The position numbers were made by a program, and so were the translations under genes. The notes under the pieces were generated by a model, which made no database searches, was not told where the DNA came from, and saw only the letters and a list, made by a program, of their open reading frames with translations. This document shows, one piece after another, positions 5,104 to 55,867 of a DNA stretch of 64,000 nucleotides (positions are counted from its first letter, which is position 1; each line of letters begins with the position of its first letter). The stretch comes from a virus (lineage: Duplodnaviria; Caudoviricetes): positions 32,001 to 96,000 of the IMG/VR virus record IMGVR_UViG_3300031867_000020; one strand, written 5' to 3'.

Positions 5104-5409
5104 TCAGAACGGGAAAGAGGAAGATCTTGAGAATATTGCGTTACGGAAACGCATTTGTTCAGTGTAGTCCCACTGGACTTTACCGCAGGTTTTACATTCG
5201 TATACATCACCATGGAGACCGAAATTTGTTGAAGGGTACACCTTGTCACACCCTAAGCACTTGCATGCCAACCCACGACAAGGACCGCCATTTGCAGTTG
5301 GAGTTAAGCAACGAAATGTAGTTTTAAGTCCATTATGCGCTCCCCAAATTTCACCTCCACAGCTGGGACATACAACACCCTCAAACCGAAGCTCAACTTT
5401 ATCGCTCAT
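5104..5409 (-). CDS. multi-Cys zinc-ribbon protein (moron gene 1)
   Basis: Start revised to MSDKVEL (GGAGGTG RBS); shares 'GCDKVY.S...GLHGDVYEC..CGK.QW.YT' with its neighbour. Confidence 0.75.
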   Translation of the reverse strand: MSDKVELRFEGVVCPSCGGEIWGAHNGLKTTFRCLTPTANGGPCRGLACKCLGCDKVYPSTNFGLHGDVYECKTCGKVQWDYTEQMRFRNAIFSRSSSFPF

Positions 5410-5442
5410 GTCAACACCTCCATTAGTATTATTTGTGGAATT

Positions 5443-5471
5443 ATTATAACCATTTTGCATGCGAGTGTCAA
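5443..5471 (-). promoter_or_regulatory. consensus sigmaA/sigma70 promoter driving the zinc-ribbon pair
   Basis: Minus strand TTGACA (5471-5466), 17-nt spacer, TATAAT (5448-5443). Confidence 0.85.
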
Positions 5472-5499
5472 CAATATTTTTTTAGAAGGAGGAGCTATT

Positions 5500-8400
5500 A
5501 TGCCAGACGAAGAAATTGTTGCATCAATAAAAGTTCGGCTTGAACAAGAAGGCATCGATAAAGCAGTTACGCAAATCGATGAATTGAAAAAAAGTGCTCA
5601 ATCTTATCAAGACACACTTAACGGAACAGATGATCAGAGACCAGCTTACTTAAACTATGCTACGGATACGTTTGCTTCGTTAAGTAAAACAATGACCGAA
5701 TTTGCAAGTTTAATAAAACAAACAGGTGTTGATATTTCGTCTTCGATGCTTAGACCATTTGAAGCAGCCAAATCTATTATGACTGATATGCAGAAAGCGA
5801 TGGGTGGCAAAAAATTCAATGCTTCAAGCTTCTTTGAAAACGAAAAAACATTTTCAAACATTTTGCATTTAAGTGAGTTTTCTTCTGTTCTTGGGAGAAT
5901 AAATGGTTTGCTCTCTACCGGAAAATCATTTGAGTCCAAGTTTGGTTGGAGTGCAAGTCAATTTAATCAGGTTATGCCATTATTAATGAATAGAACAATT
6001 CAAAATAAAGTCAATGAAATAAAAACAAACATGCGTGACGCCGGAGATTTGGATGTTAATGATTATGTGTCTCAATTGATGAATTCTAAAGCAATTACTG
6101 ATGTATTAAAGAATCAAACTATATCACAAGCTAATTCTCGCGGAATGACGAAATCTCAAATGAGAGAAAATTTGAGACTTGCTCTTATGCTTAATTCGTC
6201 GACAGCAAGAGAACGTTTTGGACGAGTAGCACTGGCTCGTGCTCCTATTGAAAATGGAACTCCTATTATATCATCTCCATTAACAATACCAGCGCAATTT
6301 CGATCTGCATATCTTGGCAGAGGTTATGCTTCGGAAGAAGAATCTAAAGCGTTTCTTTCTTCTTTAACCAGAGAAAAGGCAAATCAAAGTGTTAATCATA
6401 ATGTTTATAGAAGACTCAGAGAGTACGTTAACAATGATGAAGATGGTGTAGTTCTTAATCAGGCATTAAGAGATGCTGGCATTATGCGAATTGTCAACGG
6501 CGAATCTCATTGGGCTAAACGTCTGACTGTTCAACAGGCGAGTTTGTTTGCAGGACTTGCTGCTCGAGAATTATACGATGCTAAAAGAGGTTATACTTTC
6601 TATGATGCTGATCCTAATGACCCTGGCAACAACTATAGAGTTGATAGAAGATTAAATCGAAGAGTGCGAGGAGCTTCTTCTATTCTGTCCATTTTAAGTG
6701 GAGATGAAAATATTAGACCGGAGTTGTCCTTGCGTAATTCCGATGGGAAATGGAAGTATGAAGACGCTGTTGTTGATGCTAACACGGATTATCTTAAAGG
6801 TCATAGGCGTGATCAGATAAGAAGAATATCAAACACACCTGCAATAACTCAGTTTGTTGCACCGAACACTTATGCAGATGAAAAAGGAAATCTTGTATTT
6901 AGAGATCCTAAATGGCAAAAAAAGACACGTTTTGCTGAAGGGGAATATATCGAACCGGATCATATGATCGGTATGACAGATAACTCGATATATGAACTTT
7001 TATCTCACATTAAATGGAAATCTCCGACAACTAATCGCACTTTCAAAGCAGAAGGCCCAGGAACCTTTGGTTGGGGCCGGTACGAAAATAACGTCCTTGA
7101 TTCTAATGGAAATGTAAAATTCAAAAGAGGAGAAGCTATATACGATACTCCTCCGATTATCAGCGTAGATGCTATGGATTATTTCACCGAGGACAAAAAT
7201 GGAAAAACGATAATAAACCCAGATAAAGAAAAAGCTTTTCGTCAACTTTTGAGCGGTTCGAGAAATTATGGTGGAAGAAGCTATTCGTATTTAAATCAAA
7301 GCGAAGGCCAAATCTATATGATCGAAGATAGTGCCAAGAAAGCTATTCAAGAGTGGACAGAAAGCCAAGGAATTCCAGACTTTTTCGAAGGTGGCAATCC
7401 TTTCGGTCTTTCATCTTTGGCGAAAGATCCTAAAGATCTGATAAAACAAATTAACTCTATGCGTAAAAGCACTTCTTCGGCTTCGACATATGAATCATTG
7501 TACGGTAAACTGCCAGAAATGTCGACACGAGTTGCTAATCTGACAGCTTTTTTTAATGCTTTAAGAAAAAGCGGATTTAGCGCTTATGGTAATATTAATG
7601 ACAAAGAAGAAAAGGCCGGAACTGTTCCTGATGGTGTTGCTTTGGGTAATTCTGAATTTTTCAGAAATGGACCAATGCAAATGAGATCTGCTTTGGGTTA
7701 TGGTAAATATGTTCTAAACCCTTATAACTTCAAAGAAATGTTTGGTTCTGTGTTTTCAAATATAGATCAATCAAAAGTCACAGATAATTCGTATAATAAT
7801 AATTGGTTGATTTCAAAAGGAAGCCAGAAAGATCAATTTGATTATTGGCTCCCTGGCATTAACGCAACAGTAGAAGATGTAATGACGTTGATGTCTGGTA
7901 CAAATAGCGGATTATCTGAAGATGAGTTAAGAAAATTAAGAGAAGCACGCTTTTTTAAAGCCACGGAAGAAAACCTCGGTATGGTGATGACAGACAAAAC
8001 ATCTAAACAAAACGACCAATTCAAGCATCTAACATTAAGCCAATATGCTCAGTTTAAAGGATATGGAAAAGATAATGCTGCTCGAAAAAGGGCGTTAGAT
8101 GAATTAAGCAAAAGAGACTTTGTTACAGTAGATGATAAAGGAAAGAAAGTTGCGCATAGCGCGTATGATGCTGCTACCGGTTTAGTTGAATTAACGCCTG
8201 AAGAACAAGGTTTGCTTCATGATAAAATGACTCCTGATTTAATGGTGATGAGAAACGAATATGATTTTGCTAATGAAAAAGGTATAATGTCACAACAGAT
8301 GGCCGCAGCGTTAGGCATCAGTGTTGAAGATATTTCAAAATCAGACGCAGAGTTTGAAAGACGAATCTATGAATTGCAAACAAGTCGCGGCCGAATGAAA

Positions 8401-11400
8401 GCGCTGCAAGCAAGTCCAGCGTATGCAGAAAGAATTAAAGAAAAAGGTTTTGTTTATTCCAATGAGGCTGAGAAATACATTCAGAGTCAAATTAGACAGC
8501 TTAAGAGAGCACAACTTGAAGGATATATTGCACTTCCAGAAGGCACAAGAAAAGTAACAAAACTTGCAGCAGCAACACCAGGTGCTTTCTTGCAGCCTTT
8601 TATGGAGGCTGCCGGAATAAATGTAAACAACATTTCCGACGAAGCTTTAAGGTCTTTGCTTCCATTTATGCTGGATAAAAACGAACAAATAATAACCAGT
8701 CCGGAAGACTTAGAGAACGCAGATCGGGCAGTTGTTTCCAGAGACCCGGCCGCAGTTGCAGAAATGATATTTGCAACAAATGCTTTCGGCTTTTTGTCCG
8801 GTATCAGTGATAAAGGACTTGAAAGTATTATCAGCAATTCTCCTGATGCAATAAAAAGATTAAGGAGCAAACAGGCCGGCTATAGCGAAGGATCTGAAGA
8901 ATGGGATCGCTATCAGCAAAAAATAACTAAAGCAGTGACATTGCAAAAGCAAGCAGCAGCTTATCAAAAATTTAAAAGTTTAACCGGTGTAACAAGCGAA
9001 CAGCTGCGAGGAGCTTCTTGGCTCACAACGCAACAAATGTATGAACAAAACACTGGCGACTTTGATGGTGATGTTATTAATATGTACACCGGGCTGTCTG
9101 ATAAAACAGTAAAAAGAGCCGAGGAGTATAAAGCGAAGGTTGATGCTGCTGGTATAAAGTTTGAAGAAGAAACTGGCAAATTCATGAAGGCAACAGGAGA
9201 AGAACTTGTTGTTAATGATCAAATAGACGCAGAAATGCAAGCTATGCTTTTAACAATTCGTTCAACACAGGCGATGGGAGCTGCATCTAAACTTCTACGT
9301 GAAGCTGGAGCACTCGACGATAATGACCCCAGAAAATGGAGCCTTTTATACGAGGGTAAAAAAGCGTATGACTTCGCAAGTTCTGATATGAGAAAAAAGG
9401 CCGGATTGTTTAATTTCACAAATGATGCAGAAAGTTTAATGAAGAAACAGAATCTGCACCAACGTTTTATTAAAAGTTTGAATGCCTTTTCTGATGTTGA
9501 TTTAAGTGCACTTTCAACTGAAGATAGAGAAACAATAACAAGCAATACAATTAGCGCTTTGTTTAAATCTGGTTTGCCGAGTATAACTGATGCTCAAGGT
9601 TTCATAGCGAGATCAATGACACTTGATAAATTTGCGCACGGAGAAGTTGAAATGTCTTTTCTCCAATCTGATGTTGATCGTTTATTAAACGAACAATATG
9701 GTATGAGCGATACGCCAGAAGCAAACGCAGCAAAACATTGGTCGAATTTAATAATAAAGAATTTATCCGGACAGCTTATCAGTGAAAGAGATATTGAAAA
9801 AGCAAATGAAATTCAGCAAGCGTGGGATATAAGTATAAATCAACGTGGTAACGAAGTCTCAGACAGAGAAAGAACAGAATATGGTAGATTTACCCGAAAC
9901 ACAAAAACTCTTCGAGATAATGCGCCGACCAGAGAAAATATTGAAAATAGATTGGCACAACTAAAAGTCAGAAGAGCAAGTAACAGCGGATATATCGAAA
10001 AGGGTATTGATGATGAGATCAGCGTGTTAGAAAACGCTTTAATGGAAGATGAAGCTATTGAAGGGATTATGAAGGGAATCAACATTGCTGATTGGAAAGA
10101 AACGGAAGAATACAAGCAACAGCAAAAAGAAAGATTAGAAGCACAAACAAAATTAATCGAAGAGCAATTAGGAAAAGGCAAAATATCTCAACCATGGGAA
10201 AAGATTAAGAATAAAAATATGAACTGGTCTTCTTTCCAGAACTGGATTAAAGGAGATCAAGAATATAGAGTGATGAGTTTTGATGAAAATGGTTCGTCTG
10301 TTGCTCCAGTTAATATTAGTTTTGATAATGCAAAATATCGAGAGAATACTGCTTTGCAAGAAATGCTCGGAAAAAGCGAACAAACAGCTGCTATGGGCAT
10401 TGGTACTCTTATGCATCAAGCTTTTGAAGATTATTTTAACGCGAGGATGGATGGAACGCTTAACGGTAGAACAATTGATGATATGTTTGAAAATCTAATA
10501 GGAAACGGTGATACAAAATTTGTTAAAGATATTCCTGGTATAAGCATAATACCAGGAAAAACAAAGGAAGGAAAAACAGTTTACAACGTTTCAAGTCCAT
10601 ACCATAACGACGATAATGTTGGTAAACTGAATAACATTCTTCCTGTGCCTAAAAACGAAGTATCAGGTTTACGGAAAAGCTTAGCCGCATTAGAAGCTGC
10701 AGGCTTTGATTTAGATAATCCTGATAACATTGAGGGCGATATTCTTACATATAACAAAGGCACAAAAAAATGGGAAGCAACTGGAACTCGTTACGATAAG
10801 TTTGATTTAAAAGTAAGAGATTTTAATGCTGATGGATCGGTGAAAAAGGACGATAAAGGAAATGATGTTTATCGCACAGTTCAAACATATGCTCGTCCTG
10901 ACTTGATGCTTCATCATAAAGGCGGTAAGTTCCAAGGTCACGAATACGATGAAGGATATTATGTTATTGACTACAAATCCGGATTTGAGGGCGCTAAACA
11001 CTCTCTTAAACAGTCTGCTTTTTACGCTGCTTTATATAATCGAGCCGCAGAAGGATATTACAATGCTATTGATAAACAAAATGCCGGAGAAGAATTAACT
11101 GCAGAAGAAGCAATTGCTTTGGAGGAAGGTCGTAAATATGCCCGCTATGGCGAAATGGCCACTGATAGCAGTGGGCACAGGTATTACAGATCAAAAATTA
11201 AAGGTGCAATCGGTTTAAACCCCAATGGCAGTAGTGTTTTGTTTGACGCTCACACGTCATCAGATTTTGCAACTCAATGGAATTCTGCTTTATCAGAAGC
11301 ACAACAGGCAATAGAAGGCAAATCTCTTGAAGCAATTTTAGCCGGGACAGGAATGAGCGATAACGCTTATGATAAAGCACTTGCTTCCATGATAAGAGCT

Positions 11401-14400
11401 GAAAGAGCGCATACAGAAACACAAAAAACAACTCAAAGATTTGACGAAGATTATAATGCCGGAATGCGGATGGATGAAAATAAAATGAATTATTTTTTGG
11501 CGAGATATACAAAAGATCTTGATGAAATGAACCGGATCGGATCTTTGATACGAAAAGAAAGTGACGAACCGCCTACAAAATATAATCGATTTGCATTATA
11601 CAGAGATCAGTTAAGCAGCGTTTTACCAGATGAAGTTTATCAAGCAGCAATCAATAGATATGAACCTGGTAGTCCAGAAGCTTTGCAAATACAAAGCGAG
11701 ATGGAAAGAAAAAGGAGATACTTAAGCCAGATAGAAGCTTTGAATTTTGACGCAGCAGTAGGAGATTGGACTAAGTTATCTGACCGCGTTGAGTCAACTA
11801 TCGGTGGAGCAAAAGTTTCCAGCACATCATCTTCACTTCAAAGCATCAATAACAGCTTTTTAGATGCTCAACAAACAAGAAAAGGTCTATTTGAACGAAC
11901 AGTCGCAGTAGATAAAAAAGATGAAAATGGTAAGATTATCGGTTCAGAAGCGAAATCTATTATCAAAGGACCGTTATCTGATTATATGACAAATGAACAA
12001 AAGGCGGATTTATTTGATATTGAAAATGAAAATGAAGAAATACGAAAAGATGCAAAAGAGAGTCGAGATCAGTTTTTAGCGTCAATAGAAGCTGAAAAGA
12101 AAACGGCAGAAACGATTAAAAAGCATTTGCCAACATTGTTCAATGCTGATAAAACACAAGATGCGCAAGAGTGGGCTAATATCACAGGAGAAATTCAAGA
12201 TCCATCTACAGTCTTAGAGCAATCCTTTGAAGCAAAGAAAGCAGAAATAACAAAAAGGATTCTTTCATGGAATAAATCAGTTGCAGAAATGCAAAAAGAT
12301 ATAGATGATAATAATGCCACTCCTGCTTTAGTTCCTTTCTACAAAGAATTAATTAATGAATATAGCAATCGTGCCCAAAGAGAACAAAGTTATCTTGATA
12401 GCAAAGGATATAAAGAAAAAATAGTTAACGATGAAATGCAGCGTCTTGGTTTGTCTGGCGCAGAAAACGCGCAAGATAGAGCAGCAAAATGGGCGGATGA
12501 ACGACAAGCGGCGATCGATAAAGCGTTAGAAGTTAATTCTGAAGAATTCGCAAGGATTTCACGAGAGACAAGAAATCCATCCAACGAAAACGAACGTGAA
12601 GCAAGATTCGCCAAGCTGAGAGAAATTAATGAAAGGGCTCAAGGCTTATACAGACAAAGAGCGCAAAACAGAGAGCAGAGAACTGCTTTTGAACAAACAT
12701 GGCAAGAAGAACAGGATGATAGATTAACTAATTTTGATAATATGATTAACAGAAAGAGACTTTCTGATGAGGACAGAATTGAAACTAATGTAAAACAAGC
12801 AAGAAGACAAGCTCTGTATAATTCAATTGATCCTAAAAAGACAAAACAAGAAAGAGAAGAATGGTATAAAAGATATAAAGATGAAGACTACTGGAAGTCG
12901 TACAGGGGCAACCTTCAGCAAGAAACAAATAATGATAACCAACTTCGTGATCTTAGAAGAATAAATAGTGAAGAACAAAATCTTGCGGATATTCAGATGC
13001 GTGAGAAGCAAACGCAATGGGCGAGGGATGACTTCTATCGCAACCTGCAAAATCGAAATGGCCTTGGCTATACGATGTTTGGCCGCAACTATCTTACTTA
13101 TCAAAACCGTAGGATTCAACTTGAGAGAGATAATACACGGAGAACAAGTCAAAATGAGAGCATTGATAGGCAAGTAAAAGATCTTGATCAACAAATCAAA
13201 AATGCAAAAGCGCAAGGTAAAACAGAAGACGCAAAAGACCTTGAAACCAAAAAAGCGAACCTTTTAGCTAACAAGCAATCCAATCTGGATGAGATCAAGA
13301 GAACACAACAGGAACTGAATGGTTTAAGTGGCGCTGGGAATGCCGTCAATGCAACCTTTGATACAATAGGTCAAACGATCACAAGGTTCACACAACGCAT
13401 AGGAAGACAAATGTTCCAAAAAGCTCTTCAGGAGACAAAACGGTTTATCAAAGAATTTGATTCTTCGATGAATGAAATTCAAGCTATTACGCTGAAGGGC
13501 GATCAGGCGATGGCGAGTGTTCGTAGCAATACGATCAACAAAGCCTTGAACCTCAGAACTTCTGTTTCCAATGTTGCATCTACAGAAGCCGCGCTTTACA
13601 GGCAGGGTTTAAGTGACTCAGAGGTTTCTCAAAGAACAGATGCGATCGTAAAGTTTGCAACTGTTGCAAAGCTGAAAACCACAGAAGCAACGAAGATCAT
13701 CACAACAGCTCTTCAAAATAACCTCGTTACCTCTGCGGAGCAAGCGATGGACGCGCTTGTCGCTCTTGGCGACAGCGCTGCGACTACCGCTGCGGAGATC
13801 GGCAAAGGTATGCAAAAGGCTGCCGCGTCCGCCAAGGTTGCCGGTGTGTCTTATGCTGAACTTACTTCTTTGTTAACCTTTGGTACAAGCGATACGCAGC
13901 TGAGCGGTTCTCAGGTTGGTACAGCCTTACAGACTGTGTTTACACGTATGAGAAGGCTTACGGCTGACAACTGGGTTGCTGATCAGAACGGCGAAAAGAC
14001 CACGGCAAACGACGCAGAAAAGGCTTTGAATACGATTGGTGTTTCTCTGTGGAGCGACAAAGCAAATGGTCAGATGCGTGGAGCTTATGATATTCTTATT
14101 GATATTGCCAAGGTATGGAATAGCATCAGCGATGCCCAGAAGAGCATTGTCACCAGCGCTTTGGCTGGAACACGTCAAACGAACATTTTCTCTACGCTTA
14201 TGGAAGGTCTCGGAGAAGACGGCGGCAAGAGAGCTGAGGAATATCTCGGGCTCGCTGAAAGCAGTCAAGGCATTACTCAGACCAAGTATGAAATTGCCAT
14301 GGAAAGCCTGAATGCTTCTCTCGAGACAGTGAAATCTTCGTGGGATGCTATTGTAGAAAGCTTTACAAACAGTGGTACTATCACCGGTGTTCTTGATGGT

Positions 14401-17400
14401 GTCTCTGGCTTTATGCAGATGATAGCTAACTTGGCAAGCACAGGTCCTGGTCAGTTTACAACGGTGTTTGCCGCGATTGCCGGAGGCATCGCTGCTGTTG
14501 CTGCTGCTTCTGCTCTGTTGACGACAAGCAATCCTGTGTTAAAGACTTTGAGCACGTTGTTAACAGTTGTAGCTGGTGTTGGAACGTTTGGTATATTAAC
14601 ATCCATTGCCGGGTTATTCGCAGGAGAAGATATAAACACACAAAAAGAAAAAAGCTTGACTAAAATGCATGAAGAAGCAGTAAAACGAGAAGGCAAAAGA
14701 GCAGAAAGAACAAAAGCAATTAGCGATGTAGAAGAACTTGGTGCTGCTTATGATGAATTAGCAGAAGCAGAAAATAGTGCAGCTTTAAGTACAGCATCAA
14801 ATAATTTAAAATCTGCTTTGCTTAATCTTGCTGATGTATTTCCTAATTTAACAGCACAAATTATGGATTCTACAAGTTCGCTTAAGGACTGGAGAGACAT
14901 CGTAGATAAAGCGAAAAAAGAAAATGAAGATATAACAGCAGGTGAAATGGATGTCATAATAGCAAAATCCAGAGAACATAATGATAAATTTGATGATTAT
15001 ATGGGTAATATTGAAGATCCGTCATCTATTGAATCAGATTCTGTACGAGCCTTATACACTATACTCCATGCAGCCAATGCGTCTGGACTGGTTTCAAATA
15101 AGGATGTTGAAGATGGAATTAGTGCATATGAATTATATACCTTAGGAAACAAAACAATGAATGGATATTTTAAAGATTACACAGATAAGGTTGGAGGAAT
15201 TAATTTTACAGATGATTTTAGTTCAGACAACGAAGCATATATCGATAAACCACAAACGGACTTTTTAAAAGAATTAATTGAATCAGACAATCCGCACATA
15301 AATCGAAGTTTAAGAAAATACTATGATGAAAATAAAAAAGCTTTTGGATGGGTTGATAATAATGGCGAAGAAATATATACCTATGATGACTTTATTTCTG
15401 CATTAAAGGGAAACGAAACTGATAATGTTTATCATATGGCAAACGCAGCTGGTACAGCAAGAGGATGGATTTCTGAAGATGCTACCAGTCATTATGGAAG
15501 CAATTTTTTAGCAGGTATGTCTTTAAATCCGATGAGAGCAGAAGTGATTCAGTCGATCTTTGATGGTTTTGACAACAATAGAACTATATCTGTTGCAAAA
15601 GGCGTTTTAAAAGGTGGAGTTATTGATCAAGCGAAAGAATACTTAGATGCGTTCGAAACAAATGGATTAATGACACTTTTATCTGAAGCAACAGGTGGTG
15701 AGTATAGTGCTGATTTCATAAAAGAGGTAATGGAAAGACAAATCTATGATATCTTATTTGATGAAAACGGCGAAATGAAAAAAGGTGTAACAATAGAAAA
15801 TGTTAACACTGGATTAAATAATTTCTTAGATGGATACATGACAGCAAAGGATAAAAGAAAATACTTGCAAGAATATATTGATCAGTATGCATCTCCTGAT
15901 ATGTATGAGTATTTTCTTCCTGATGAAAATGGAGGAATTGAATACAAAGGGTATACAACTATTGAAGCGGCAACAAAAGCTGCAAAAGAAAAAGGAATCG
16001 GTACGGAAAACATCATGGTATCCGACGGAAAGGGTTGGTATAGGGCTTATTACTCTACTCCTGAAGAAGTGATGACTGCAAGAGTTATGGCTGGAAAGTC
16101 GGGAGGTATAGGATATAACGAGAAAAGAGATTTCTTAAAAGATATGAATAAGTTTGATAATATTGGTGCTTTAAAAAAGGAATATAGTGGTGATAAATCC
16201 GAAACCTTTGGTTCGCTTCTTTCAGGTGATGTCAGTACCGCTGCTTATTATATGGCGGAAAATGGTCTTATCAGCTATAATAAATTTAAAGATATATATG
16301 GAAGGAATGTGAACGGACAAAACACGGACTTTGATCTGATAGAACCTTTCCTGAACGAGAATGGTACGATTAAAAATATAGATCTTCTGAGAACAGACGA
16401 GTTCAAAGGAGCAAGACAGGCTTTTGAAAATGTATTTGGCTCTACTACTTTCGCTGAAATGCTTGATAAAACGGATGAAATTACTCGCGCCGAATTTGAT
16501 AAAATTAAAGAAAAGGGTTTATGGACAGGTGATTTTGAGTCACTAATGACAGATTATATGCCTGAAAAAGATGATACTGTTTCGGTAGCTACACGTTTCT
16601 TACAAAAGGAGCTTCGGGAACTAATAGCAAATGCTGTTGGTGCTTATGAGTTTGATGAAGATCTTGCAAGAACCGTAAAGCAAGCACAGGCATCCAAAGA
16701 AATAGAGAGAAAGTTCCAGTTCGATGAAAACTATGATACGATCAAAAACTATGGTTTAGCTTTTGGATATGGAACAGAGACGCAGAAGAATGCATCGCGT
16801 GCTCAAGTCAGAAGCACAACGACAAACCTCGGCAATTTCAACGCAGCTGTTGACAGATATACAAATGGCAAGGCTCGCGATGAAGATTATCGTGTTATTG
16901 CCGGAGTAACAGGAATGTCTGAAAGCTATCTGAGAAATAATGCCAACAGCAAAACCACAAAAAATGTTGTAGGTGCAAGAAGAGATCTTGACATTCAATC
17001 TCAAATCGATCTGTACGGAAAAGTCCGTGAAGCCTCTGGTATAAAAGAAAACTCTAAGCAAGACAAAGAGTTGCTGAATCTGTTTGGATTAGAAAGAGAC
17101 AAAGATGGAATCATTCGTTTTGTCGCACAAGAAGACGTTGTCTCAAATAATGTTACACGACAAAACCAGATCAACAACTATGATAGAGCTTCTCTTCGTG
17201 ATGCGTTTGGATATGCTATCACAGACGAAGGTAAAATTTATGGCAGTGACAAATTGGTTCAAAGAGCACTTGCCGGCAACGAGGAAGCATACGGAAGACT
17301 TACTCAAGACGAGCTTTATCAGGCATATGCAAACGCGGGCATTGAAGGTAATGATTTCCGTAACATGATCGGACGCAGAGCGAAAGGTGTAACCGGAACT

Positions 17401-20400
17401 TATGCTCAAAACTGGTCTCCTGTTATGGCAAAATTGATGGGATCAAGCAATGTAGATGAATGGGATTGGAAAAAGATCAGAGAGAATTATCAAAATGGTA
17501 CATCTGAAACCAAGGCAGCATACGAAGCTTTGTTTGGGGCGACTACCAACGGACAGCAGGCTCTTGATTATCTTACCGGTGCGAGCAATAATATGCCGTC
17601 GGCTTCTTTTGCCGCCGGAGTAAAAACTCAGATGTCCGGAGTTGAAGGTGTTAATTATTCCGAGCAGTTTACTTCTTCTGATATTTCTCGTCTTTCTGGC
17701 CGACTGCTTACTGATGGCAGAAGCTGGAACGATCTTAAAGCGGCGAATCTATTTAGTGATGAAGAATGGGCCGCTATTGAACAAGGAAATGCTGATCTTG
17801 TTTCGTATCTGAAGCTTGAAGACAAAACAACTCCTTATGCCAAGAGGCTCAGAGAAAGTGCTCAGCTCAAGATGCTTGAAGGCAAAAGATATGATTCTTC
17901 CTCCGACGCGGCGGCGTATGCCAGAGCTTTATTTAACTATCAAAACAAGCCAGCTCTTGCTGCACAAACAGCATATGATAACAGGAAGAATTATTCTGAT
18001 ATCAGCGAATTTATTAAAGCGCAAGAAAGCTTAAATGGTTGGACTGATCTTGTTGCTACACAGGAATACCAGGACTGGTATAAAGAGTATGTCGAAGGCG
18101 GAAAGAGTTATGATGAAGCGATTGAAGCATTCTCCGACCTGACCATGTACAACAGAGGAGCAAACTACAAAACATCTGCCGAAACAGCGGATATTGTGGA
18201 ACGAGCTCTTCAATCTACAGATCGCCGTAATAATACTGCTGAATACAAAGCCATTCAGTCTGTTCTCGGCAACAAAGCTGCTGCAGACTGGCTAAATGGA
18301 GAAGATCTCACCAACAATGCGACATATCAAAATATGATCAATAATTATAGATATGGACTCTCTGGATATACTGGGGCTCAGATTAGGCAAGGTCAAAGAA
18401 ATATTGCCAGAATGACTCAGGAACAACTCGGAAAAAGGTTGTTAAGTGAAGAGTATAGAACTGAAGCTTCTCAATACATGTCTGGTTTCAGCGAATGGAA
18501 TGAATACGCAGCTTTGCTTCAAGCTAAGGCGAGTGGAGAAAAGTATGATGAAGCTGAATTAGATAGACTTCAAACCAAGTTTGATCGGTTTAATGAGCAG
18601 GCTCAAATACAATTTGAGGTTGATGGTATTAGTGATCTTGAACAGGCTGGAGAAGTTGTCAGCGGTTTAAGTGATACCATTTCGAAGATCAAGCAGGGCG
18701 GAAATATTGCGATCAAAGCATCTGTTGAATTCGAGAACAATGAGCATCAAACGCTTCAATATGGAGCGATGTTGGACAGCGCGTCTCGATCTGATCAGTA
18801 TACGGCTGTAAAAGCCTTAACTGGTTGGAGCGACGCCCGAATCCAAAGCGACTGGGCAGGAGCGATGTCTGCTGCCAGAGCTATTCACGGTGTTAATGTG
18901 TCCCAGTACGGCAACTCTGACGAAGAAATCGTTGCTGAGTTAAATAGGAGATATGCGAAAAATCCTGAAGATGCACTGGAACTTGCAAATCTTTTAGGGT
19001 TTGAGCTTACAACTGATAACGAAGGAAATATATCTCATCTTTCATTTAAACGCATCGGAAACGGATCAATTGATCGTGAGAATCGTTTCCATGAAACAAC
19101 CCGCCAATACACAGCGCAAGAAATTAACGACGCAAGAAGACGGATGTTAAATGGAGAGAACTTAAGCCAAGAAGATAATGACTTATATAATGCAGCTTCG
19201 GATAACGCTGGAAAGTATTTAACGGCATATCTGAAGATGATGAACAATCCAAGCGCTTATACCGACCAGGAAATTGCAGAAGCAAGACGGCGTGCAGAAC
19301 AAGAGCTTAATCTTGAAGGGAAAGATGCGCGCAGAAAACCGCTGGAGGATTATGCTCTCTACGAAGAGAACGAAGCCAAGGTTAAAATGGCAACAGACAT
19401 ATATGACGCATATAGCAACGTTGATCAGACAAAGCGTCGTTCCATGATGTCTACAATTAGCGGTGAATTCGAAGGGATTCAGAATGCGCAATGGGCATTA
19501 AATCAAGGTGCGACAACAAGCACATCGAGGAACTACATTGCATCCGTTCTCGGTTTAAGTGAAAAAGATGTTCAGAAAGCTATGAGAACCGATGAAGGTA
19601 AAAAACAACTCCAGGAAGATTTGCAATCCAAGAGCAAAGACTTATTCAAATCTGTTCTTGATGGATATGGTAAGGCTTTTAAAATTGAATTCGATACATC
19701 TGATACTGGGGTTGAGAATGCAGTTAGTCAAATTCTGGAGAATGCCAGCACGCTCGGAACAGAAGTGACGAATTATCTTCTGCATCTTGCGGGACTTATG
19801 ACGAGCGATGGTCTTCTTGGAGAAAATGATGACTACGATTTTGTAACAGCCATGATGAACGCTTCTGATAATTACGCTGAAACCAAAACTTCTGAACGTG
19901 GTTATTTATGGTTATCTGAACATCCAGAAGAAGCAAGAGAGCTTTTGTCCAATCCTACGATACTTCCTGAAGGATACACATATGTTGAAGGCAAGGGAAT
20001 ATATGATAGCACTGGCCTTCTTGGGTACGATACGAACAGTGATTTGTATCAAAGATATCAAGCGCAAAGACAAATTTCTCAAAGCTCCGGTGTTAACTGG
20101 ACCAAATTCACAGAACAAGAACCTATAATAACAGCAGCTATCTTGAATCACGGTGAAGGCGGCGTTGGAGATGAGTTATACGACGCAATAATGACAGCAG
20201 GCGTTACAGGAGTTAAAGGTTCTGATTATTATGGAGCTATTGGCTCGAATTATCTCGGTCGGTTTGCTGGCATTAATGGCGGTATTACCGGTATTAATTC
20301 CATGGAAGACGCAGAAGAATTTATGGGGCTTGTTCAAAAATGGCAAACTGATGAAACCGGAAATGGTGCTATCTTTGATGAATGGTATAATAGCGTTGAG

Positions 20401-23400
20401 GGCATGTCTGATCTTATGGGCGCTATAGATAGCAAAAACTTTGATAAAGTGGGCGAGGCTATAGGTAAGATTAATGATCAAGTAAGCGACCGGAAAGCAG
20501 CCGAAATAACGAAATACGGAAATGCTTCGGATAAAGCACTTAAAAAGATCGGTGGATATTATAACAAGATGAACAGTCTTTCATACAAGAATGAAAAGCT
20601 CAATGGCATTATTGGTAAAGCCAGCGCTGGAAAAGGCGGAGCTTCTCTTTCTTCGAAAGAACTTGAAGTCCTAAGCGAAGCTACAAACATGTCTACCGAT
20701 GCTCTTAAAGCTACTGGAGCAAATGCGATAAAGTCTTTGGCTGAAGGCGCAAAAGATGCAATTGATACAGAGTGGGGACAAGAAATTGCTGAACCTCTCA
20801 TTAATAGCATTAATGAGGGTATACAACACCTGAATTTGAATGATAATGAAAAATTACAGCTTACGAGGGCTATTGATTTGTCTGTTGATGCAAATACAGG
20901 ACAGGTAGATATTTCCGCTTTGGCTGATGCCGTTGCTACTTTTGATAGCAGTCTCGCAGAAACACTCCGTGCCTACGATGGACACGGAGGAACGCTTATG
21001 GCTGAGTGGAAAGAAGGCCAGAGTTCTCTTGGATATATTTTAAAATACCTCGGATCCGGAACGGGCACTACCGGCGGTAAAGGCGGCGGAGGAGGCGGAG
21101 GTGGCGGAGGCAAGTCCGAAGTCGACAAACTTCTCGAAAAGCAAAAGCATGCCGTCACCGAGGCCGAGCATAACGTCAAGATGACCCAGATCGAGGGCGA
21201 GCATTATCAGAAAACTGGTGACTACGCCGCTTATCTGAAGATGCTCGATCAAGAAATCGCCGCGCAGGAAAAGCTTGGGCAGGTATATCAAAAGAATATT
21301 AAAGAAATGAAAGCGCAGAGAGATCAGGTTGCGTATGGTTCGGATGACTGGTATAAGCTGACGGAGTCCATCTTCTCTACAGAAGAAGCTTTGGCTCAAC
21401 TGAAACTTACAATTAACGAGATCAATGGCAAGAGAATTGACGCGCTGATCAACAGACAGGAAGTAAGCCTCAGTCCGTATCAGCACGCAGGAAAATTGAT
21501 GTCCACAGCAGCCAACAAGGCGTTGACACTTAAAAACTATTCTGATTATTATTATCTTGGAAAAAGACAAAATACCAACGATCAGATGACGATCAATGCA
21601 AATAATAAGTCTATCGATCAACTGAAAGAAGAACTTAAAAAGGAAAAGTATATGAGTGAAAACTGGATTAAGGTTCGTCAGCAGATCTGGTCTCTTCAAG
21701 AAGAGAATGCTGAGCTTGAGCTTAGCATTGTTGAACGAACCAATGAGATGAACCATCAGAGAGTTGCTCAGATCGCAGAAGAACTTGAGCGGAATAGGCT
21801 CGCTGATCCTACGCATGGAATGAATATGGAAAATGCTGCGGCTCAGTATTATCAGAGGAACAGGCTTTATGATGAGTATCGTGGATCGTTGACCACATCA
21901 AACACCTTTGCTCAGTCTCAGGTTTCGGAATACAGAAAGGCAATTGCTGCGCTGAAGGTTCGCATGAACGGCTTTGAGCCGGATTCCGATGCCTGGTATG
22001 AAGCCAGAGATATGGTTTACAAGTACGAGGAAGCCATTGCTTCGCTTACTAATACTATTGATGAAAACAAACATGCGATTCAGGAGTCGTATATCACCGA
22101 ACTGGATGAAGAATTCCAGAGAGGAGACAGCATTTACAGTCTTGAAAAGAGCATGCTTCAGGCAATGGAAACCAAGTATGATAAGGATAATGACTTTGTG
22201 AATTATCTGAATATTATTGGAATCGAAGCAAATCAGGCAAAGGATCGAATGAATGAACTTAGCGATCAGCTTGTTCAATGGGAAGATCTTCTTGCAAGCG
22301 GCCTGATTGATGAAGGATCTGCTGAATGGGATGAGCTTATTCAGAAGATCATGAGCGTTAGGGAAGAAATGATTAATGTTGGCGTTGAATATGATGACTT
22401 TGTCCGGAAACTTCAACAAAGTCGGTTTGCGCATGATAAGGAAGTGTTCGGACGTGAGGACGAATACAACCAGCATCGAATCAAACTGATTCAGTATGAG
22501 GAGTCCAGGTATCAGAACCTTGGTGAACTGACCAACTATGGCACTATGCTTGAATATGATAACGTTGAACAGCAAAGACGCGCTGAATCCATCGCAAAGT
22601 ATATCGAAGTTCTGAAGCAAGATCTTGCTGAGACGGAAGAAGGCACTGATGTCTATCATGAGATCACATCTGAAATCATGAAGATGGAAGAGAACCTTGC
22701 GACCGTAAACAACACAATCGAAAAGAATAACAAACTGCTTGAGCAGAACAGGCTGAACATCCTGAAAGTGCATAAAGCGCTGGACGATGTGATCAACACA
22801 GAGATCAAGCGCAGAGTACAAGAACAGCGAGACATGCTCAATGCTGAAGTAACGCTTCAGGATTCCATTGTGGATCAGATCAGAAAGCGGTATCAGGACG
22901 AATGGGCGCTTGTAAAGAAAGATATCGAAGAGAAGAAGAAGGCTCTGAGTGAAGAGAAGAATCTTCTCAACGAACGTCTCAATGCCAGAAAGAATGCTGT
23001 TGATCAGGAGTCCAAGTATGAGAAGCTGGCTGAGCTTCAGAAACAGCTTGCGCTGATTGAAACAGATCCGACAAAAACCAAAGAAGCCAAGTTGATCGGA
23101 AAGCAAATTAAGGATCTTCGACAGGAGATCTCGTTGAGTATCGCGGATCAGGAAGTGCTTGCGGAATCCGAACGTATTGATCAGCAAACGCAGGCTCTGA
23201 CAGATTATGCGACAGATTATGAAACCAAACTCAATGAAGCTCTTGCGGATGCTAATAACAAACTGATCGCTGATGAGCTTGATCAGGTGATGAGCGGTAA
23301 TTTTGAAAGCTATATTGAATGGATGAAGACTTACAACAAAGCTTATCAGAATGCCACAGAGGAAGCAAGAAAACAGATGGAGCTTGGATGGAGAGACACC

Positions 23401-24426
23401 TGGAACAAGATGATCGCTTATATCGATACTTATTGGGACGAGGTCGAGGCTATTCATAATATGACCGAAGACGAGTATGTGAACTGGCTGAAACAGGGAA
23501 CCAATTATAAGTTTGCTTCTGATACAGAAAAGCAGATCATGGAGTACGAGTGGCGCGAACGGTATCAGAATGAGATCGCCGCGCACAGAACAGGTGCGAG
23601 CTTCGAAGATTATCACAGCATCACAGAAAAGCTGAATGAACTTCAGGACTATACATACAGTGTAGACTTCTCTGAAGCAACAATGAGCTTTATTAATGGC
23701 CTGTTTGATTACACACTGTTTAATCATCCGCATGGATCCTATTGGGATACCGGCGTAAGTGACGAAGTGTTAGGTGCGGATTACTATGGGAGAATGAGCG
23801 ACCTGCATAAGACAGAAACAAAACCGACAAACACTGGCGGCAGTAGTTCTACAACTCCTACTTCCGGTGGCGGTTCTGGTTCGAGCAGCAGCACTTCTGT
23901 TCAGCGGTATACAATAGCGCTTGAAAACGGAAGATATGTTGTAAAACTCTATGAAGGCGGTCAATATACAAGCTATACGGACGCTAAGAATCAAGCTGAT
24001 CTTTTGAACAGAATGCTGAATCAAAGCGGAACCCCTGCTGCAGACAGTGGGATCACAACTCCTTATTCTGGCTTCACCATAGGTGAACCTCAGAAGTTTG
24101 CCTCGGGTGGCCTTGTTGATTACACAGGTCCTGCGTGGGTGGACGGTACTCCTACACGTCCCGAAGCGTTCCTGGATCCTGAAGACACAGAGTTGATCAG
24201 AGCAATGGTTGATTCGTTAAGCTATGTCCATCTGAAGACGCCGACGATTATGCCTGATACATCTGATTATGGAAACAACAATACGATCGGAGATATCAAT
24301 ATTACAATTAATCAGGCTGAACTTAGCAGCGATGCTGATATTGATCAGCTTGCGCGTAGGGTTGGCAGTGCTTTCACAAGAGAGCTTTCTCATCAGGGTC
24401 TTAACCTTGCGAACTACAGTTTTTAA
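5500..24426 (+). CDS. giant tape measure protein (6308 aa) with N-terminal RNA polymerase-like and PD-(D/E)xK nuclease-like domains
   Basis: Start revised to MPDEEIV (AAGGAGGAG RBS). Lies between chaperones and Dit. TP901-type TMP core at ~13380-14400; C-terminal FASGG..GPAWVDG..PEAFL TMP motif; DFDGD at 9058-9072; IDYKSG near 10965. Confidence 0.85.
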   Translation: MPDEEIVASIKVRLEQEGIDKAVTQIDELKKSAQSYQDTLNGTDDQRPAYLNYATDTFASLSKTMTEFASLIKQTGVDISSSMLRPFEAAKSIMTDMQKAMGGKKFNASSFFENEKTFSNILHLSEFSSVLGRINGLLSTGKSFESKFGWSASQFNQVMPLLMNRTIQNKVNEIKTNMRDAGDLDVNDYVSQLMNSKAITDVLKNQTISQANSRGMTKSQMRENLRLALMLNSSTARERFGRVALARAPIENGTPIISSPLTIPAQFRSAYLGRGYASEEESKAFLSSLTREKANQSVNHNVYRRLREYVNNDEDGVVLNQALRDAGIMRIVNGESHWAKRLTVQQASLFAGLAARELYDAKRGYTFYDADPNDPGNNYRVDRRLNRRVRGASSILSILSGDENIRPELSLRNSDGKWKYEDAVVDANTDYLKGHRRDQIRRISNTPAITQFVAPNTYADEKGNLVFRDPKWQKKTRFAEGEYIEPDHMIGMTDNSIYELLSHIKWKSPTTNRTFKAEGPGTFGWGRYENNVLDSNGNVKFKRGEAIYDTPPIISVDAMDYFTEDKNGKTIINPDKEKAFRQLLSGSRNYGGRSYSYLNQSEGQIYMIEDSAKKAIQEWTESQGIPDFFEGGNPFGLSSLAKDPKDLIKQINSMRKSTSSASTYESLYGKLPEMSTRVANLTAFFNALRKSGFSAYGNINDKEEKAGTVPDGVALGNSEFFRNGPMQMRSALGYGKYVLNPYNFKEMFGSVFSNIDQSKVTDNSYNNNWLISKGSQKDQFDYWLPGINATVEDVMTLMSGTNSGLSEDELRKLREARFFKATEENLGMVMTDKTSKQNDQFKHLTLSQYAQFKGYGKDNAARKRALDELSKRDFVTVDDKGKKVAHSAYDAATGLVELTPEEQGLLHDKMTPDLMVMRNEYDFANEKGIMSQQMAAALGISVEDISKSDAEFERRIYELQTSRGRMKALQASPAYAERIKEKGFVYSNEAEKYIQSQIRQLKRAQLEGYIALPEGTRKVTKLAAATPGAFLQPFMEAAGINVNNISDEALRSLLPFMLDKNEQIITSPEDLENADRAVVSRDPAAVAEMIFATNAFGFLSGISDKGLESIISNSPDAIKRLRSKQAGYSEGSEEWDRYQQKITKAVTLQKQAAAYQKFKSLTGVTSEQLRGASWLTTQQMYEQNTGDFDGDVINMYTGLSDKTVKRAEEYKAKVDAAGIKFEEETGKFMKATGEELVVNDQIDAEMQAMLLTIRSTQAMGAASKLLREAGALDDNDPRKWSLLYEGKKAYDFASSDMRKKAGLFNFTNDAESLMKKQNLHQRFIKSLNAFSDVDLSALSTEDRETITSNTISALFKSGLPSITDAQGFIARSMTLDKFAHGEVEMSFLQSDVDRLLNEQYGMSDTPEANAAKHWSNLIIKNLSGQLISERDIEKANEIQQAWDISINQRGNEVSDRERTEYGRFTRNTKTLRDNAPTRENIENRLAQLKVRRASNSGYIEKGIDDEISVLENALMEDEAIEGIMKGINIADWKETEEYKQQQKERLEAQTKLIEEQLGKGKISQPWEKIKNKNMNWSSFQNWIKGDQEYRVMSFDENGSSVAPVNISFDNAKYRENTALQEMLGKSEQTAAMGIGTLMHQAFEDYFNARMDGTLNGRTIDDMFENLIGNGDTKFVKDIPGISIIPGKTKEGKTVYNVSSPYHNDDNVGKLNNILPVPKNEVSGLRKSLAALEAAGFDLDNPDNIEGDILTYNKGTKKWEATGTRYDKFDLKVRDFNADGSVKKDDKGNDVYRTVQTYARPDLMLHHKGGKFQGHEYDEGYYVIDYKSGFEGAKHSLKQSAFYAALYNRAAEGYYNAIDKQNAGEELTAEEAIALEEGRKYARYGEMATDSSGHRYYRSKIKGAIGLNPNGSSVLFDAHTSSDFATQWNSALSEAQQAIEGKSLEAILAGTGMSDNAYDKALASMIRAERAHTETQKTTQRFDEDYNAGMRMDENKMNYFLARYTKDLDEMNRIGSLIRKESDEPPTKYNRFALYRDQLSSVLPDEVYQAAINRYEPGSPEALQIQSEMERKRRYLSQIEALNFDAAVGDWTKLSDRVESTIGGAKVSSTSSSLQSINNSFLDAQQTRKGLFERTVAVDKKDENGKIIGSEAKSIIKGPLSDYMTNEQKADLFDIENENEEIRKDAKESRDQFLASIEAEKKTAETIKKHLPTLFNADKTQDAQEWANITGEIQDPSTVLEQSFEAKKAEITKRILSWNKSVAEMQKDIDDNNATPALVPFYKELINEYSNRAQREQSYLDSKGYKEKIVNDEMQRLGLSGAENAQDRAAKWADERQAAIDKALEVNSEEFARISRETRNPSNENEREARFAKLREINERAQGLYRQRAQNREQRTAFEQTWQEEQDDRLTNFDNMINRKRLSDEDRIETNVKQARRQALYNSIDPKKTKQEREEWYKRYKDEDYWKSYRGNLQQETNNDNQLRDLRRINSEEQNLADIQMREKQTQWARDDFYRNLQNRNGLGYTMFGRNYLTYQNRRIQLERDNTRRTSQNESIDRQVKDLDQQIKNAKAQGKTEDAKDLETKKANLLANKQSNLDEIKRTQQELNGLSGAGNAVNATFDTIGQTITRFTQRIGRQMFQKALQETKRFIKEFDSSMNEIQAITLKGDQAMASVRSNTINKALNLRTSVSNVASTEAALYRQGLSDSEVSQRTDAIVKFATVAKLKTTEATKIITTALQNNLVTSAEQAMDALVALGDSAATTAAEIGKGMQKAAASAKVAGVSYAELTSLLTFGTSDTQLSGSQVGTALQTVFTRMRRLTADNWVADQNGEKTTANDAEKALNTIGVSLWSDKANGQMRGAYDILIDIAKVWNSISDAQKSIVTSALAGTRQTNIFSTLMEGLGEDGGKRAEEYLGLAESSQGITQTKYEIAMESLNASLETVKSSWDAIVESFTNSGTITGVLDGVSGFMQMIANLASTGPGQFTTVFAAIAGGIAAVAAASALLTTSNPVLKTLSTLLTVVAGVGTFGILTSIAGLFAGEDINTQKEKSLTKMHEEAVKREGKRAERTKAISDVEELGAAYDELAEAENSAALSTASNNLKSALLNLADVFPNLTAQIMDSTSSLKDWRDIVDKAKKENEDITAGEMDVIIAKSREHNDKFDDYMGNIEDPSSIESDSVRALYTILHAANASGLVSNKDVEDGISAYELYTLGNKTMNGYFKDYTDKVGGINFTDDFSSDNEAYIDKPQTDFLKELIESDNPHINRSLRKYYDENKKAFGWVDNNGEEIYTYDDFISALKGNETDNVYHMANAAGTARGWISEDATSHYGSNFLAGMSLNPMRAEVIQSIFDGFDNNRTISVAKGVLKGGVIDQAKEYLDAFETNGLMTLLSEATGGEYSADFIKEVMERQIYDILFDENGEMKKGVTIENVNTGLNNFLDGYMTAKDKRKYLQEYIDQYASPDMYEYFLPDENGGIEYKGYTTIEAATKAAKEKGIGTENIMVSDGKGWYRAYYSTPEEVMTARVMAGKSGGIGYNEKRDFLKDMNKFDNIGALKKEYSGDKSETFGSLLSGDVSTAAYYMAENGLISYNKFKDIYGRNVNGQNTDFDLIEPFLNENGTIKNIDLLRTDEFKGARQAFENVFGSTTFAEMLDKTDEITRAEFDKIKEKGLWTGDFESLMTDYMPEKDDTVSVATRFLQKELRELIANAVGAYEFDEDLARTVKQAQASKEIERKFQFDENYDTIKNYGLAFGYGTETQKNASRAQVRSTTTNLGNFNAAVDRYTNGKARDEDYRVIAGVTGMSESYLRNNANSKTTKNVVGARRDLDIQSQIDLYGKVREASGIKENSKQDKELLNLFGLERDKDGIIRFVAQEDVVSNNVTRQNQINNYDRASLRDAFGYAITDEGKIYGSDKLVQRALAGNEEAYGRLTQDELYQAYANAGIEGNDFRNMIGRRAKGVTGTYAQNWSPVMAKLMGSSNVDEWDWKKIRENYQNGTSETKAAYEALFGATTNGQQALDYLTGASNNMPSASFAAGVKTQMSGVEGVNYSEQFTSSDISRLSGRLLTDGRSWNDLKAANLFSDEEWAAIEQGNADLVSYLKLEDKTTPYAKRLRESAQLKMLEGKRYDSSSDAAAYARALFNYQNKPALAAQTAYDNRKNYSDISEFIKAQESLNGWTDLVATQEYQDWYKEYVEGGKSYDEAIEAFSDLTMYNRGANYKTSAETADIVERALQSTDRRNNTAEYKAIQSVLGNKAAADWLNGEDLTNNATYQNMINNYRYGLSGYTGAQIRQGQRNIARMTQEQLGKRLLSEEYRTEASQYMSGFSEWNEYAALLQAKASGEKYDEAELDRLQTKFDRFNEQAQIQFEVDGISDLEQAGEVVSGLSDTISKIKQGGNIAIKASVEFENNEHQTLQYGAMLDSASRSDQYTAVKALTGWSDARIQSDWAGAMSAARAIHGVNVSQYGNSDEEIVAELNRRYAKNPEDALELANLLGFELTTDNEGNISHLSFKRIGNGSIDRENRFHETTRQYTAQEINDARRRMLNGENLSQEDNDLYNAASDNAGKYLTAYLKMMNNPSAYTDQEIAEARRRAEQELNLEGKDARRKPLEDYALYEENEAKVKMATDIYDAYSNVDQTKRRSMMSTISGEFEGIQNAQWALNQGATTSTSRNYIASVLGLSEKDVQKAMRTDEGKKQLQEDLQSKSKDLFKSVLDGYGKAFKIEFDTSDTGVENAVSQILENASTLGTEVTNYLLHLAGLMTSDGLLGENDDYDFVTAMMNASDNYAETKTSERGYLWLSEHPEEARELLSNPTILPEGYTYVEGKGIYDSTGLLGYDTNSDLYQRYQAQRQISQSSGVNWTKFTEQEPIITAAILNHGEGGVGDELYDAIMTAGVTGVKGSDYYGAIGSNYLGRFAGINGGITGINSMEDAEEFMGLVQKWQTDETGNGAIFDEWYNSVEGMSDLMGAIDSKNFDKVGEAIGKINDQVSDRKAAEITKYGNASDKALKKIGGYYNKMNSLSYKNEKLNGIIGKASAGKGGASLSSKELEVLSEATNMSTDALKATGANAIKSLAEGAKDAIDTEWGQEIAEPLINSINEGIQHLNLNDNEKLQLTRAIDLSVDANTGQVDISALADAVATFDSSLAETLRAYDGHGGTLMAEWKEGQSSLGYILKYLGSGTGTTGGKGGGGGGGGGGKSEVDKLLEKQKHAVTEAEHNVKMTQIEGEHYQKTGDYAAYLKMLDQEIAAQEKLGQVYQKNIKEMKAQRDQVAYGSDDWYKLTESIFSTEEALAQLKLTINEINGKRIDALINRQEVSLSPYQHAGKLMSTAANKALTLKNYSDYYYLGKRQNTNDQMTINANNKSIDQLKEELKKEKYMSENWIKVRQQIWSLQEENAELELSIVERTNEMNHQRVAQIAEELERNRLADPTHGMNMENAAAQYYQRNRLYDEYRGSLTTSNTFAQSQVSEYRKAIAALKVRMNGFEPDSDAWYEARDMVYKYEEAIASLTNTIDENKHAIQESYITELDEEFQRGDSIYSLEKSMLQAMETKYDKDNDFVNYLNIIGIEANQAKDRMNELSDQLVQWEDLLASGLIDEGSAEWDELIQKIMSVREEMINVGVEYDDFVRKLQQSRFAHDKEVFGREDEYNQHRIKLIQYEESRYQNLGELTNYGTMLEYDNVEQQRRAESIAKYIEVLKQDLAETEEGTDVYHEITSEIMKMEENLATVNNTIEKNNKLLEQNRLNILKVHKALDDVINTEIKRRVQEQRDMLNAEVTLQDSIVDQIRKRYQDEWALVKKDIEEKKKALSEEKNLLNERLNARKNAVDQESKYEKLAELQKQLALIETDPTKTKEAKLIGKQIKDLRQEISLSIADQEVLAESERIDQQTQALTDYATDYETKLNEALADANNKLIADELDQVMSGNFESYIEWMKTYNKAYQNATEEARKQMELGWRDTWNKMIAYIDTYWDEVEAIHNMTEDEYVNWLKQGTNYKFASDTEKQIMEYEWRERYQNEIAAHRTGASFEDYHSITEKLNELQDYTYSVDFSEATMSFINGLFDYTLFNHPHGSYWDTGVSDEVLGADYYGRMSDLHKTETKPTNTGGSSSTTPTSGGGSGSSSSTSVQRYTIALENGRYVVKLYEGGQYTSYTDAKNQADLLNRMLNQSGTPAADSGITTPYSGFTIGEPQKFASGGLVDYTGPAWVDGTPTRPEAFLDPEDTELIRAMVDSLSYVHLKTPTIMPDTSDYGNNNTIGDINITINQAELSSDADIDQLARRVGSAFTRELSHQGLNLANYSF

Positions 24427-45775: not shown

Positions 45776-45864
45776 TTTTAGTCACATAGTTAGTCAACAG
45801 GCAATCCCCGAAGGCGTTGATTTACAAGGGTTTCAAGAACATTTTTAGTCACAAAGTTAGTCAC
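45776..45864. repeat. putative integrase arm-binding repeats
   Basis: TTTTAGTCACA(T/A)AGTTAGTCA twice (45776-45796, 45843-45863), i.e. four TTAGTCA units. Confidence 0.7.
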
Positions 45865-46918: not shown

Positions 46919-47024
46919 GGTAAAATCTCCTTCTTCTGGAGCATTCACTATACAGTTGCCAAGGTTCAAAGACAGAAGATCGCAAAGCTTGTCCAGCCTT
47001 GTGAGGATCTCCTGCTGTTGTTTC

Positions 47025-47052
47025 ATTATAGCATCACTTCCCAAAAACACAA
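47025..47052 (-). promoter_or_regulatory. integrase promoter (extended -10)
   Basis: Minus strand TG-c-TATAAT at 47033-47025; weak -35 TTGTGT. Confidence 0.55.
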
Positions 47053-47057
47053 GAATA

Positions 47058-47082
47058 GGGCGGCGTTTTGGTAACGCCACCC
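47058..47082 (-). terminator. terminator separating the leftward operon from the integrase
   Basis: GGGTGGCGTT-accaa-AACGCCGCCC followed by a T-rich run on the minus strand. Confidence 0.6.
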
Positions 47083-47101
47083 AGCTCAACACGGTTAAAA
47101 A

Positions 47102-55836: not shown

Positions 55837-55867
55837 ATGTTTATACTCCTCCCGTAGATACACTATC

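Follow-up and report, generated by a model that had tools for sequence, protein, structure and literature searches.

In the Thermus phage P23-45, the tape measure protein (TMP) gp96 is fused to a virion RNA polymerase (RNAP), and the same fusion is found in phages P74-26, G20c and TSP4 (PDB 8H2M/8H2N; Chaban et al. 2024, PMC10770324). The virion enzyme transcribes the pre-early genes of P23-45 from promoters, the gene for a non-virion enzyme included, and gp96 is the only TMP-fused enzyme that has been studied (PMC10770324). A free enzyme, YonO, transcribes the late genes of phage SPbeta, and experiments have established it as a DNA-dependent RNAP (Forrest et al. 2017, PMC5467207). Here, we examined a stretch of 64,000 nt (the window) from IMG/VR virus record IMGVR_UViG_3300031867_000020, positions 32,001 to 96,000, in which one gene encodes a TMP of 6,308 aa. 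An earlier note made from the letters of the window alone had proposed that the N-terminal part of this protein is a divergent RNAP delivered with the TMP at injection. It had also mentioned the fusion in P23-45, correctly, and had stated that no example from a phage with an integrase was known to have been characterised; this held in the literature searched, where the P23-45 group is the only one with a TMP-fused RNAP. Overall, its interpretation is supported. We consider it probable that a single-chain two-barrel RNAP with an intact active site, at aa ~447–1333, is made with the TMP, ejected into the host and transcribes the first phage genes. Taken separately, catalytic activity of the domain is likely, and its location in the virion and action at entry are on balance favoured.

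That the 6,308 aa protein is a TMP is firm. Its gene (5500–24426, plus strand) is unbroken in one frame, lies in a single plus strand open reading frame (ORF; 5335–24426 in the window ORF listing) and was assigned a start at ATG 5500, with a ribosome binding site (RBS), GGAGG, 8 nt ahead. The product, which contains no Cys and is identical to database protein P0002, matches the TMP core domain PF10145 (PhageMin_Tail) at aa 2681–2890 (13540–14169, plus strand; E 4.9e-27, 95.5 bits where the cut-off is 33.2) and TMP PHROGs 4211, 28 and 1533. Two hydrophobic membrane-type segments follow directly behind the core (14452–14625, plus strand; means of ≤2.23 in a Kyte-Doolittle scan), and the gene has tail-gene neighbours and occupies the slot before that for the distal tail protein (Dit), as in the phage TMP class. 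Hence, the approximately 2600 aa said in the earlier note to precede the TMP core are there, ~2,680 residues lying ahead of the PF10145 match.

The motifs that had drawn attention to this N-terminal region are all present in the one ORF on the plus strand, namely VPDGVALGNS (7624–7653), MQMRSALGYGKYVL (7675–7716), MTDKTSK (7987–8007), IMSQQMAAAL (8284–8313), VVSRDP (8731–8748) and NTGDFDGD (9049–9072), and the residue numbers given for them (D711, Q727, R729, K736 and DFDGD at 1187–1191) are right. Residues are counted from Met 5500 throughout, and numbers in the structural model described below are converted to this scheme by adding 149. By itself, the catalytic motif is weak evidence because shuffling a protein of this length with its composition kept yields D[FY]DGD in 1.0 % and DxDGD in 13 % of cases. 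The decisive point against chance is the conservation of the motifs across the family. The family is very rare: when 1.84 billion representative proteins were searched exhaustively with HMMER, only 17 relatives emerged, which are 22–47 % identical and include giants of 4,352–6,256 aa. In the first, beta-like barrel (DPBB-B, for double-psi-beta-barrel), the motif DG-x14-Q-x-R-x6-K (7630–7707, plus strand) is made up of D711, G712, Q727, R729 and K736 (D562/G563, Q578, R580 and K587 in the model), each conserved in 12/12 informative family sequences. The same holds for R1081 and P1083 (model R932 and P934), the R-x-P motif of the second, beta'-like barrel (DPBB-A; 8740–8748, plus strand), each again in 12/12. 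The catalytic loop, NTGDFDGDV in the window copy (9049–9075, plus strand), carries the Asp triad D1187, D1189 and D1191; residues N1184–D1191 (model N1035–D1042) are kept in 13–14 of 14 sequences, and NTGD[FY]DGDT is found in every family member covering the site. The conservation of all three motifs holds down to ~22 % identity. DFDGD and K736, whose conservation in homologues had been singled out for checking, are thus both conserved (12/12 to 14/14). MTDKTSK and IMSQQMAAAL are conserved partially, or only in the closer relatives. The earlier note had also taken 'DG...QxR' to mark the other barrel in single-chain enzymes; this is borne out within the TMP family, but the QxR form is not common to YonO, which has MxR.

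A conserved N-terminal block (aa 150–1340; 5947–9519, plus strand), delimited by the conservation profile, alignments and the model itself, was modelled with AlphaFold2 on an alignment of 18 sequences. The model of this 1,191 aa block has a predicted local distance difference test score (pLDDT) of 71.4, mostly >85 in the centre, and a predicted template modelling score (pTM) of 0.66. The earlier note had pointed to a pair of DPBB in a predicted structure as the feature to look for, and the model favours the two-barrel RNAP fold, with both barrels in one chain and superposable on solved members. The predicted core (model residues 298–1184, aa 447–1333; 6838–9498, plus strand) aligns to RDR2, QDE-1, gp64/gp62, gp96 and gp66. 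When the PDB was searched with Foldseek, ranks 1–19 were all QDE-1 or RDR2 (E 2e-4 to 2e-2, probability 0.99–1.00) and phi14:2 gp66, from a crAss-like phage, came next. In the viral library BFVD, the top matches were phage proteins annotated as RNA-dependent RNA polymerase (RdRP; E 5.5e-8). In two independent structure searches, all five solved single-chain two-barrel RNAP families lead, with a clear gap beneath them.

The three hallmarks of such enzymes, a DxDGD Asp triad in the beta'-like barrel, an R-x-P motif upstream of it and basic K/R residues in the beta-like barrel, are all found, and their placement in the model is as expected for two barrels. The first motif lies on predicted strands 564–568, 577–581 and 587–593, R-x-P directly behind predicted strand 927–931, and the Asp triad in a loop between helix 1028–1034 and strand 1043–1048 (all in model numbering). 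Long helices at model 1052–1076 and 1092–1121, behind the second barrel, where a bridge helix and trigger loop would be expected, are inside the aligned range ending at 1184. R729 and K736 would, judging from the sequence, be the residue-level equivalents of those in YonO or QDE-1. Between the barrels, the model has ~230–290 residues, mostly in confident helices, compared with a 67-residue connector in gp96, which is flat and clamp-less; the TMP polymerase is, therefore, probably not of this flat, clamp-less shape. It would add a deep branch to the two-barrel polymerases, for which the best structural matches, by structure search and not by phylogeny, are the eukaryotic RNA interference polymerases.

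Behind the polymerase block is a segment (10177–11379, plus strand) resembling RecB/Cas4-type PD-(D/E)xK nucleases. The motifs H..E, PD, (D/E)xK and QxxxY occur in order, as G.LMH..FE (10402–10428), PD (10897–10902), DYK (10969–10977) and Q...Y (11011–11025), and all are invariant in 7 sequences. The model of this segment is of low confidence (pLDDT 54) and the weak matches to RecB-type proteins were not used as proof. Two of the relatives, P0009 and P0010, share 22–26 % identity with the window protein and are fused likewise; hence, the linkage of the polymerase module with the TMP has been kept across deep divergence.

The locus resembles P23-45 in that the RNAP (aa 447–1333) is N-terminal to the TMP core (aa 2681–2890) in one frame within the tail module, and in that the genome pairs the TMP-borne RNAP with free RNAPs, a virion plus non-virion layout. 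It differs in that the phage is mesophilic, SPbeta-like, integrase-bearing and from the ruminant gut, in the added RecB-like segment and in that no metallopeptidase was detected; RDR2, QDE-1 and gp64 also resemble the predicted structure more closely than gp96 does. With YonO, it shares the motif order (DG...x-R...K, R-x-P, DxDGD), the single-chain two-barrel type and an origin in temperate Bacillota phages, its activity here being predicted. However, YonO is a free protein of ~840 aa that is expressed from the prophage and serves the late genes. QDE-1 (PDB 2J7N, 7Y7x) and RDR2 (7W82, 7EU0) are cellular enzymes that copy RNA or single-stranded DNA for silencing, have no virion link and share 10–11 % identity. 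The phi14:2 gp66 (PDB 6VR4) is the virion RNAP of a podovirus, packaged in the capsid and not fused to a TMP; its motif is reportedly DFDID. The virion RNAP of N4, a giant enzyme that is injected, transcribes the early genes and assists entry of the genome, is a functional analogue, but it is stored in the capsid and has a T7-like right-hand fold in place of two barrels. It is mentioned in PMC10770324.

Both free RNAPs are encoded outside the window. The first, a YonO orthologue of 931 aa with DVDGD (L002:82–2874, minus strand; genome 79–2874), shares 35 % identity over 90 % of SPbeta YonO (E ~1e-122), scores 39.2 bits with Pfam RdRP and is a candidate for the non-virion RNAP. The second, a divergent YonO paralogue of ~943 aa with DYDGD (L005:2153–4984, minus strand; genome 17153–19984), matched the YonO profile in hhalign (98.9 %, E 2.3e-17, 646 columns) and had no match in GenBank phages. 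Translated from its RBS-preceded start, the paralogue begins with the hydrophobic stretch MKKFLTIVLAIMLALLPVIPG, an odd N-terminus for a polymerase.

The whole 6,308 aa is free of Cys, although, going by the rest of the genome, ~112 are expected. Its relatives have 0–2 Cys and P23-45 gp96 likewise has 0. The avoidance extends over the polymerase module, unlike the cytoplasmic YonO paralogues, the two free YonO-type enzymes of the same genome having 26 and 21 Cys. This fits, circumstantially, a protein that is stored and moved outside the cytoplasm.

By analogy with what was shown for P23-45 gp96, we propose ejection and early transcription. The polymerase, made within the TMP, would stay with it in the tail until ejection, enter the host before or alongside the DNA, and refold where the tape-measure channel ends in the cytoplasm. 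It would then transcribe the first DNA entering, the pre-early genes, with no need of the host polymerase, and would perhaps help to draw in the 108-kb genome. In a temperate phage, such an enzyme would be present only at infection and absent at prophage induction, so its targets would be either entry-specific or read redundantly by another polymerase. A possible, though doubtful, extension is an 'entry-only' programme in which the injected enzyme drives entry functions (genome pulling, counter-defence, lysis–lysogeny bias) before the two YonO-type polymerases take over, in a cascade of three polymerases with little dependence on the host enzyme, and with the fusion acquired independently of the Thermus phages.

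Several results weigh against an injected polymerase of this kind. Neither Pfam (E up to 0.1) nor PHROGs gave a match for aa 1–2700, and a phmmer search with the block and an hmmsearch with the family profile against PDB sequences returned only noise, with no match to 8H2M. When profiles were compared with hhalign, the family profile matched gp96 residues 1–1200 at a probability of 11 %, confined to 41 columns surrounding DFDGD, and a 4-sequence YonO profile with 2 %, pairing only the DG...R...K segments. The model depends on 18 sequences only, has low-confidence parts, and gives TM-scores of only 0.25–0.32. The window copy has an insertion of ~50–60 aa between R-x-P and DFDGD (~8776–8970, model 944–1008), of low pLDDT and absent from all relatives, owing to which the spacing of R-x-P to the triad is 106 aa in place of the ~55–60 aa in relatives. 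The longer connector between the barrels may make the enzyme bulkier and harder to pass through the tail tube than gp96. A search of the genome for promoters (repeated 9- to 14-mers and upstream 8-mers) found no shared promoter-like word. Finally, as an injected RNAP cannot act at prophage induction, its targets must be dispensable for the lytic cycle or be read by a second polymerase as well.

The remaining comparisons were also negative. Against 50,697 GenBank phage records, tblastn with the block gave no match, including any to gp96, and hhalign gave insignificant probabilities of 0.5 % for the YonO orthologue of the genome and 1.7 % for the paralogue. These insignificant matches (11 %, 0.5 %, 1.7 % and 2 %) still land on equivalent motifs: the first motif pairs with the H.DG.G...M.R....KG segment of YonO, R-x-P with RNP of the paralogue, and the catalytic loop with gp96's own DFDGD. 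Membership of the TMP block in the YonO family or in Pfam RdRP (PF05183) was not found, nor was sequence homology to gp96. As there is no sequence-detectable homology to any of the three, we read the TMP polymerase as a separate lineage reaching the same fusion, and not as a relative of the Thermus proteins, though very deep common descent with them remains conceivable.

If so, a strategy published until now only for one unrelated hot-spring phage group, which could pass for a peculiarity of lytic phages of thermophiles, has a second lineage, unrelated in sequence, in temperate SPbeta-like gut phages, and this suggests that TMP-borne delivery of a cell-type RNAP is more than a curiosity and has arisen repeatedly as a solution. 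It poses a question that lytic phages cannot, namely what role an injected polymerase has in a virus that also starts from a prophage without the enzyme. The family further provides an enzyme free of Cys that presumably regains its fold once it is through the tail, and indicates that giant proteins annotated as 'tape measure' can hide enzymes missed by Pfam and PHROGs.

The alternative that survives best, though we hold it to be unlikely, keeps an active TMP-delivered polymerase and gives it another main job, as a motor reeling in the genome by transcription, as a maker of RNA primers or as a copier of RNA, possibly with the adjacent nuclease. T7 RNAP reels in its genome by transcribing, and QDE-1 and the RDR enzymes copy RNA. 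However, template preference does not follow from a shared fold, an enzyme may both pull and transcribe, and the only TMP-fused enzyme studied transcribes pre-early genes from promoters (PMC10770324).

A further alternative is that the module is not ejected, being cut from the TMP or made apart and acting in the producing cell as a third non-virion RNAP. In its favour, some phages process their TMPs, gp96 looks less bulky than the module, and the N-terminal ~1,720 aa are encoded by an ORF of their own in two relatives from metagenomes. We rejected a clean 'split gene' form for these two relatives, as the breaks (L006:9940–10060 and L007:6440–6560) are inside the nuclease-like segment and involve a change of frame, with DYK lost in the first. 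The interruptions could be real fission or mutation, a programmed frameshift or an assembly error; from the sequences, they look like disruptions or assembly errors and not a designed boundary. Seven family members are uninterrupted, the avoidance of Cys spans the module, and an enzyme made late would find little left to transcribe. Hence, we regard retention in the producing cell as improbable.

Loss of function would leave a relic fold that does not polymerise and serves as bulk, plug or length element of the TMP. The insertion in the catalytic barrel of the window copy and the extreme divergence from all known RNAPs would fit this. However, conservation in the family is highest at the Asp triad with its flanks, at R-x-P and at the basic residues of the other barrel, even though overall identity falls to 22 %. 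These are exactly the positions that a relic would lose, and a relic is therefore quite improbable. That the motifs are chance occurrences in a very long protein that is no polymerase, which the 1 % of shuffles with D[FY]DGD and the lack of a Pfam match might suggest, is the least probable explanation by far and is already contradicted by the model-based structure searches, which place all five solved families first, and by the conservation of the motifs.

An ejected, transcribing polymerase is our preferred reading. The genome is one contig of 107,884 bp, the ends of which (1–130 and 107755–107884) share a repeat of ~127 nt; the assembly is accordingly either a closed circle or terminally redundant, with a length of ~107.8 kb (about 107.76). 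It comes from a bovine gut metagenome, and partial matches were found in other ruminant gut runs; the runs listed as carrying it included none of RNA. Head-completion and structural genes are upstream of the giant gene. Immediately 3' of it is the Dit gene (24491–25597, plus strand; phrog_33, E 6.6e-15), followed by a gene for a large minor tail or tail fibre-like protein, possibly Tal (25610–30340, plus strand; phrog_6211, E 6.4e-19). In a relative, the giant gene sits behind SPbeta-type YomX and YomU tube genes. A tyrosine integrase gene (45857–47092, minus strand; PF00589 E 6.1e-17, PF22022, PF14659), a marker of a temperate phage, confirms the integrase attributed to this phage in the earlier note, which had further called it a Firmicute siphovirus; the SPbeta-like, Bacillota-type character stands, and the host phylum is one that we infer from it. 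The genome also encodes a DnaE-type polymerase, a primase-helicase, a reverse transcriptase and an RNA ligase.

The distribution of the family was also approached with the back-translated NTGDFDGDT pattern, which gave three true matches in IMG/VR. The sole match among 185,579 species genomes, in a metagenome-assembled genome of Acidimicrobiales, was dissimilar to the family and was taken as chance.

Small minus strand genes for Zn-ribbon-like proteins lie directly upstream of the giant gene both in the window (5104–5460) and in a 22 % identical relative (L007:519–1213), i.e. the arrangement is conserved. Among the repeated words, the recurring AAAATAAAAAAAAG is the T-run of minus strand terminators, and the GGGACATGAGCCC element occurs only twice. 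An element, GCGGyCTwTrGGGACATGAGCCC, is found just before the RBS of two consecutive minus strand genes, one of them that of the YonO paralogue, each behind an intrinsic terminator. It has only these two sites in the genome (19975–20050 and 20300–20375, L005) and may serve as a promoter or as an RNA element. The reverse transcriptase gene (L002:4212–5372, minus strand; PF00078, E 1.1e-23) may belong to a diversity-generating retroelement, and the RNA ligase (window 54766–55863, minus strand) has a PHA02142 oligonucleotide/oligosaccharide-binding (OB)-fold domain (E 3.9e-33 and 1e-16).

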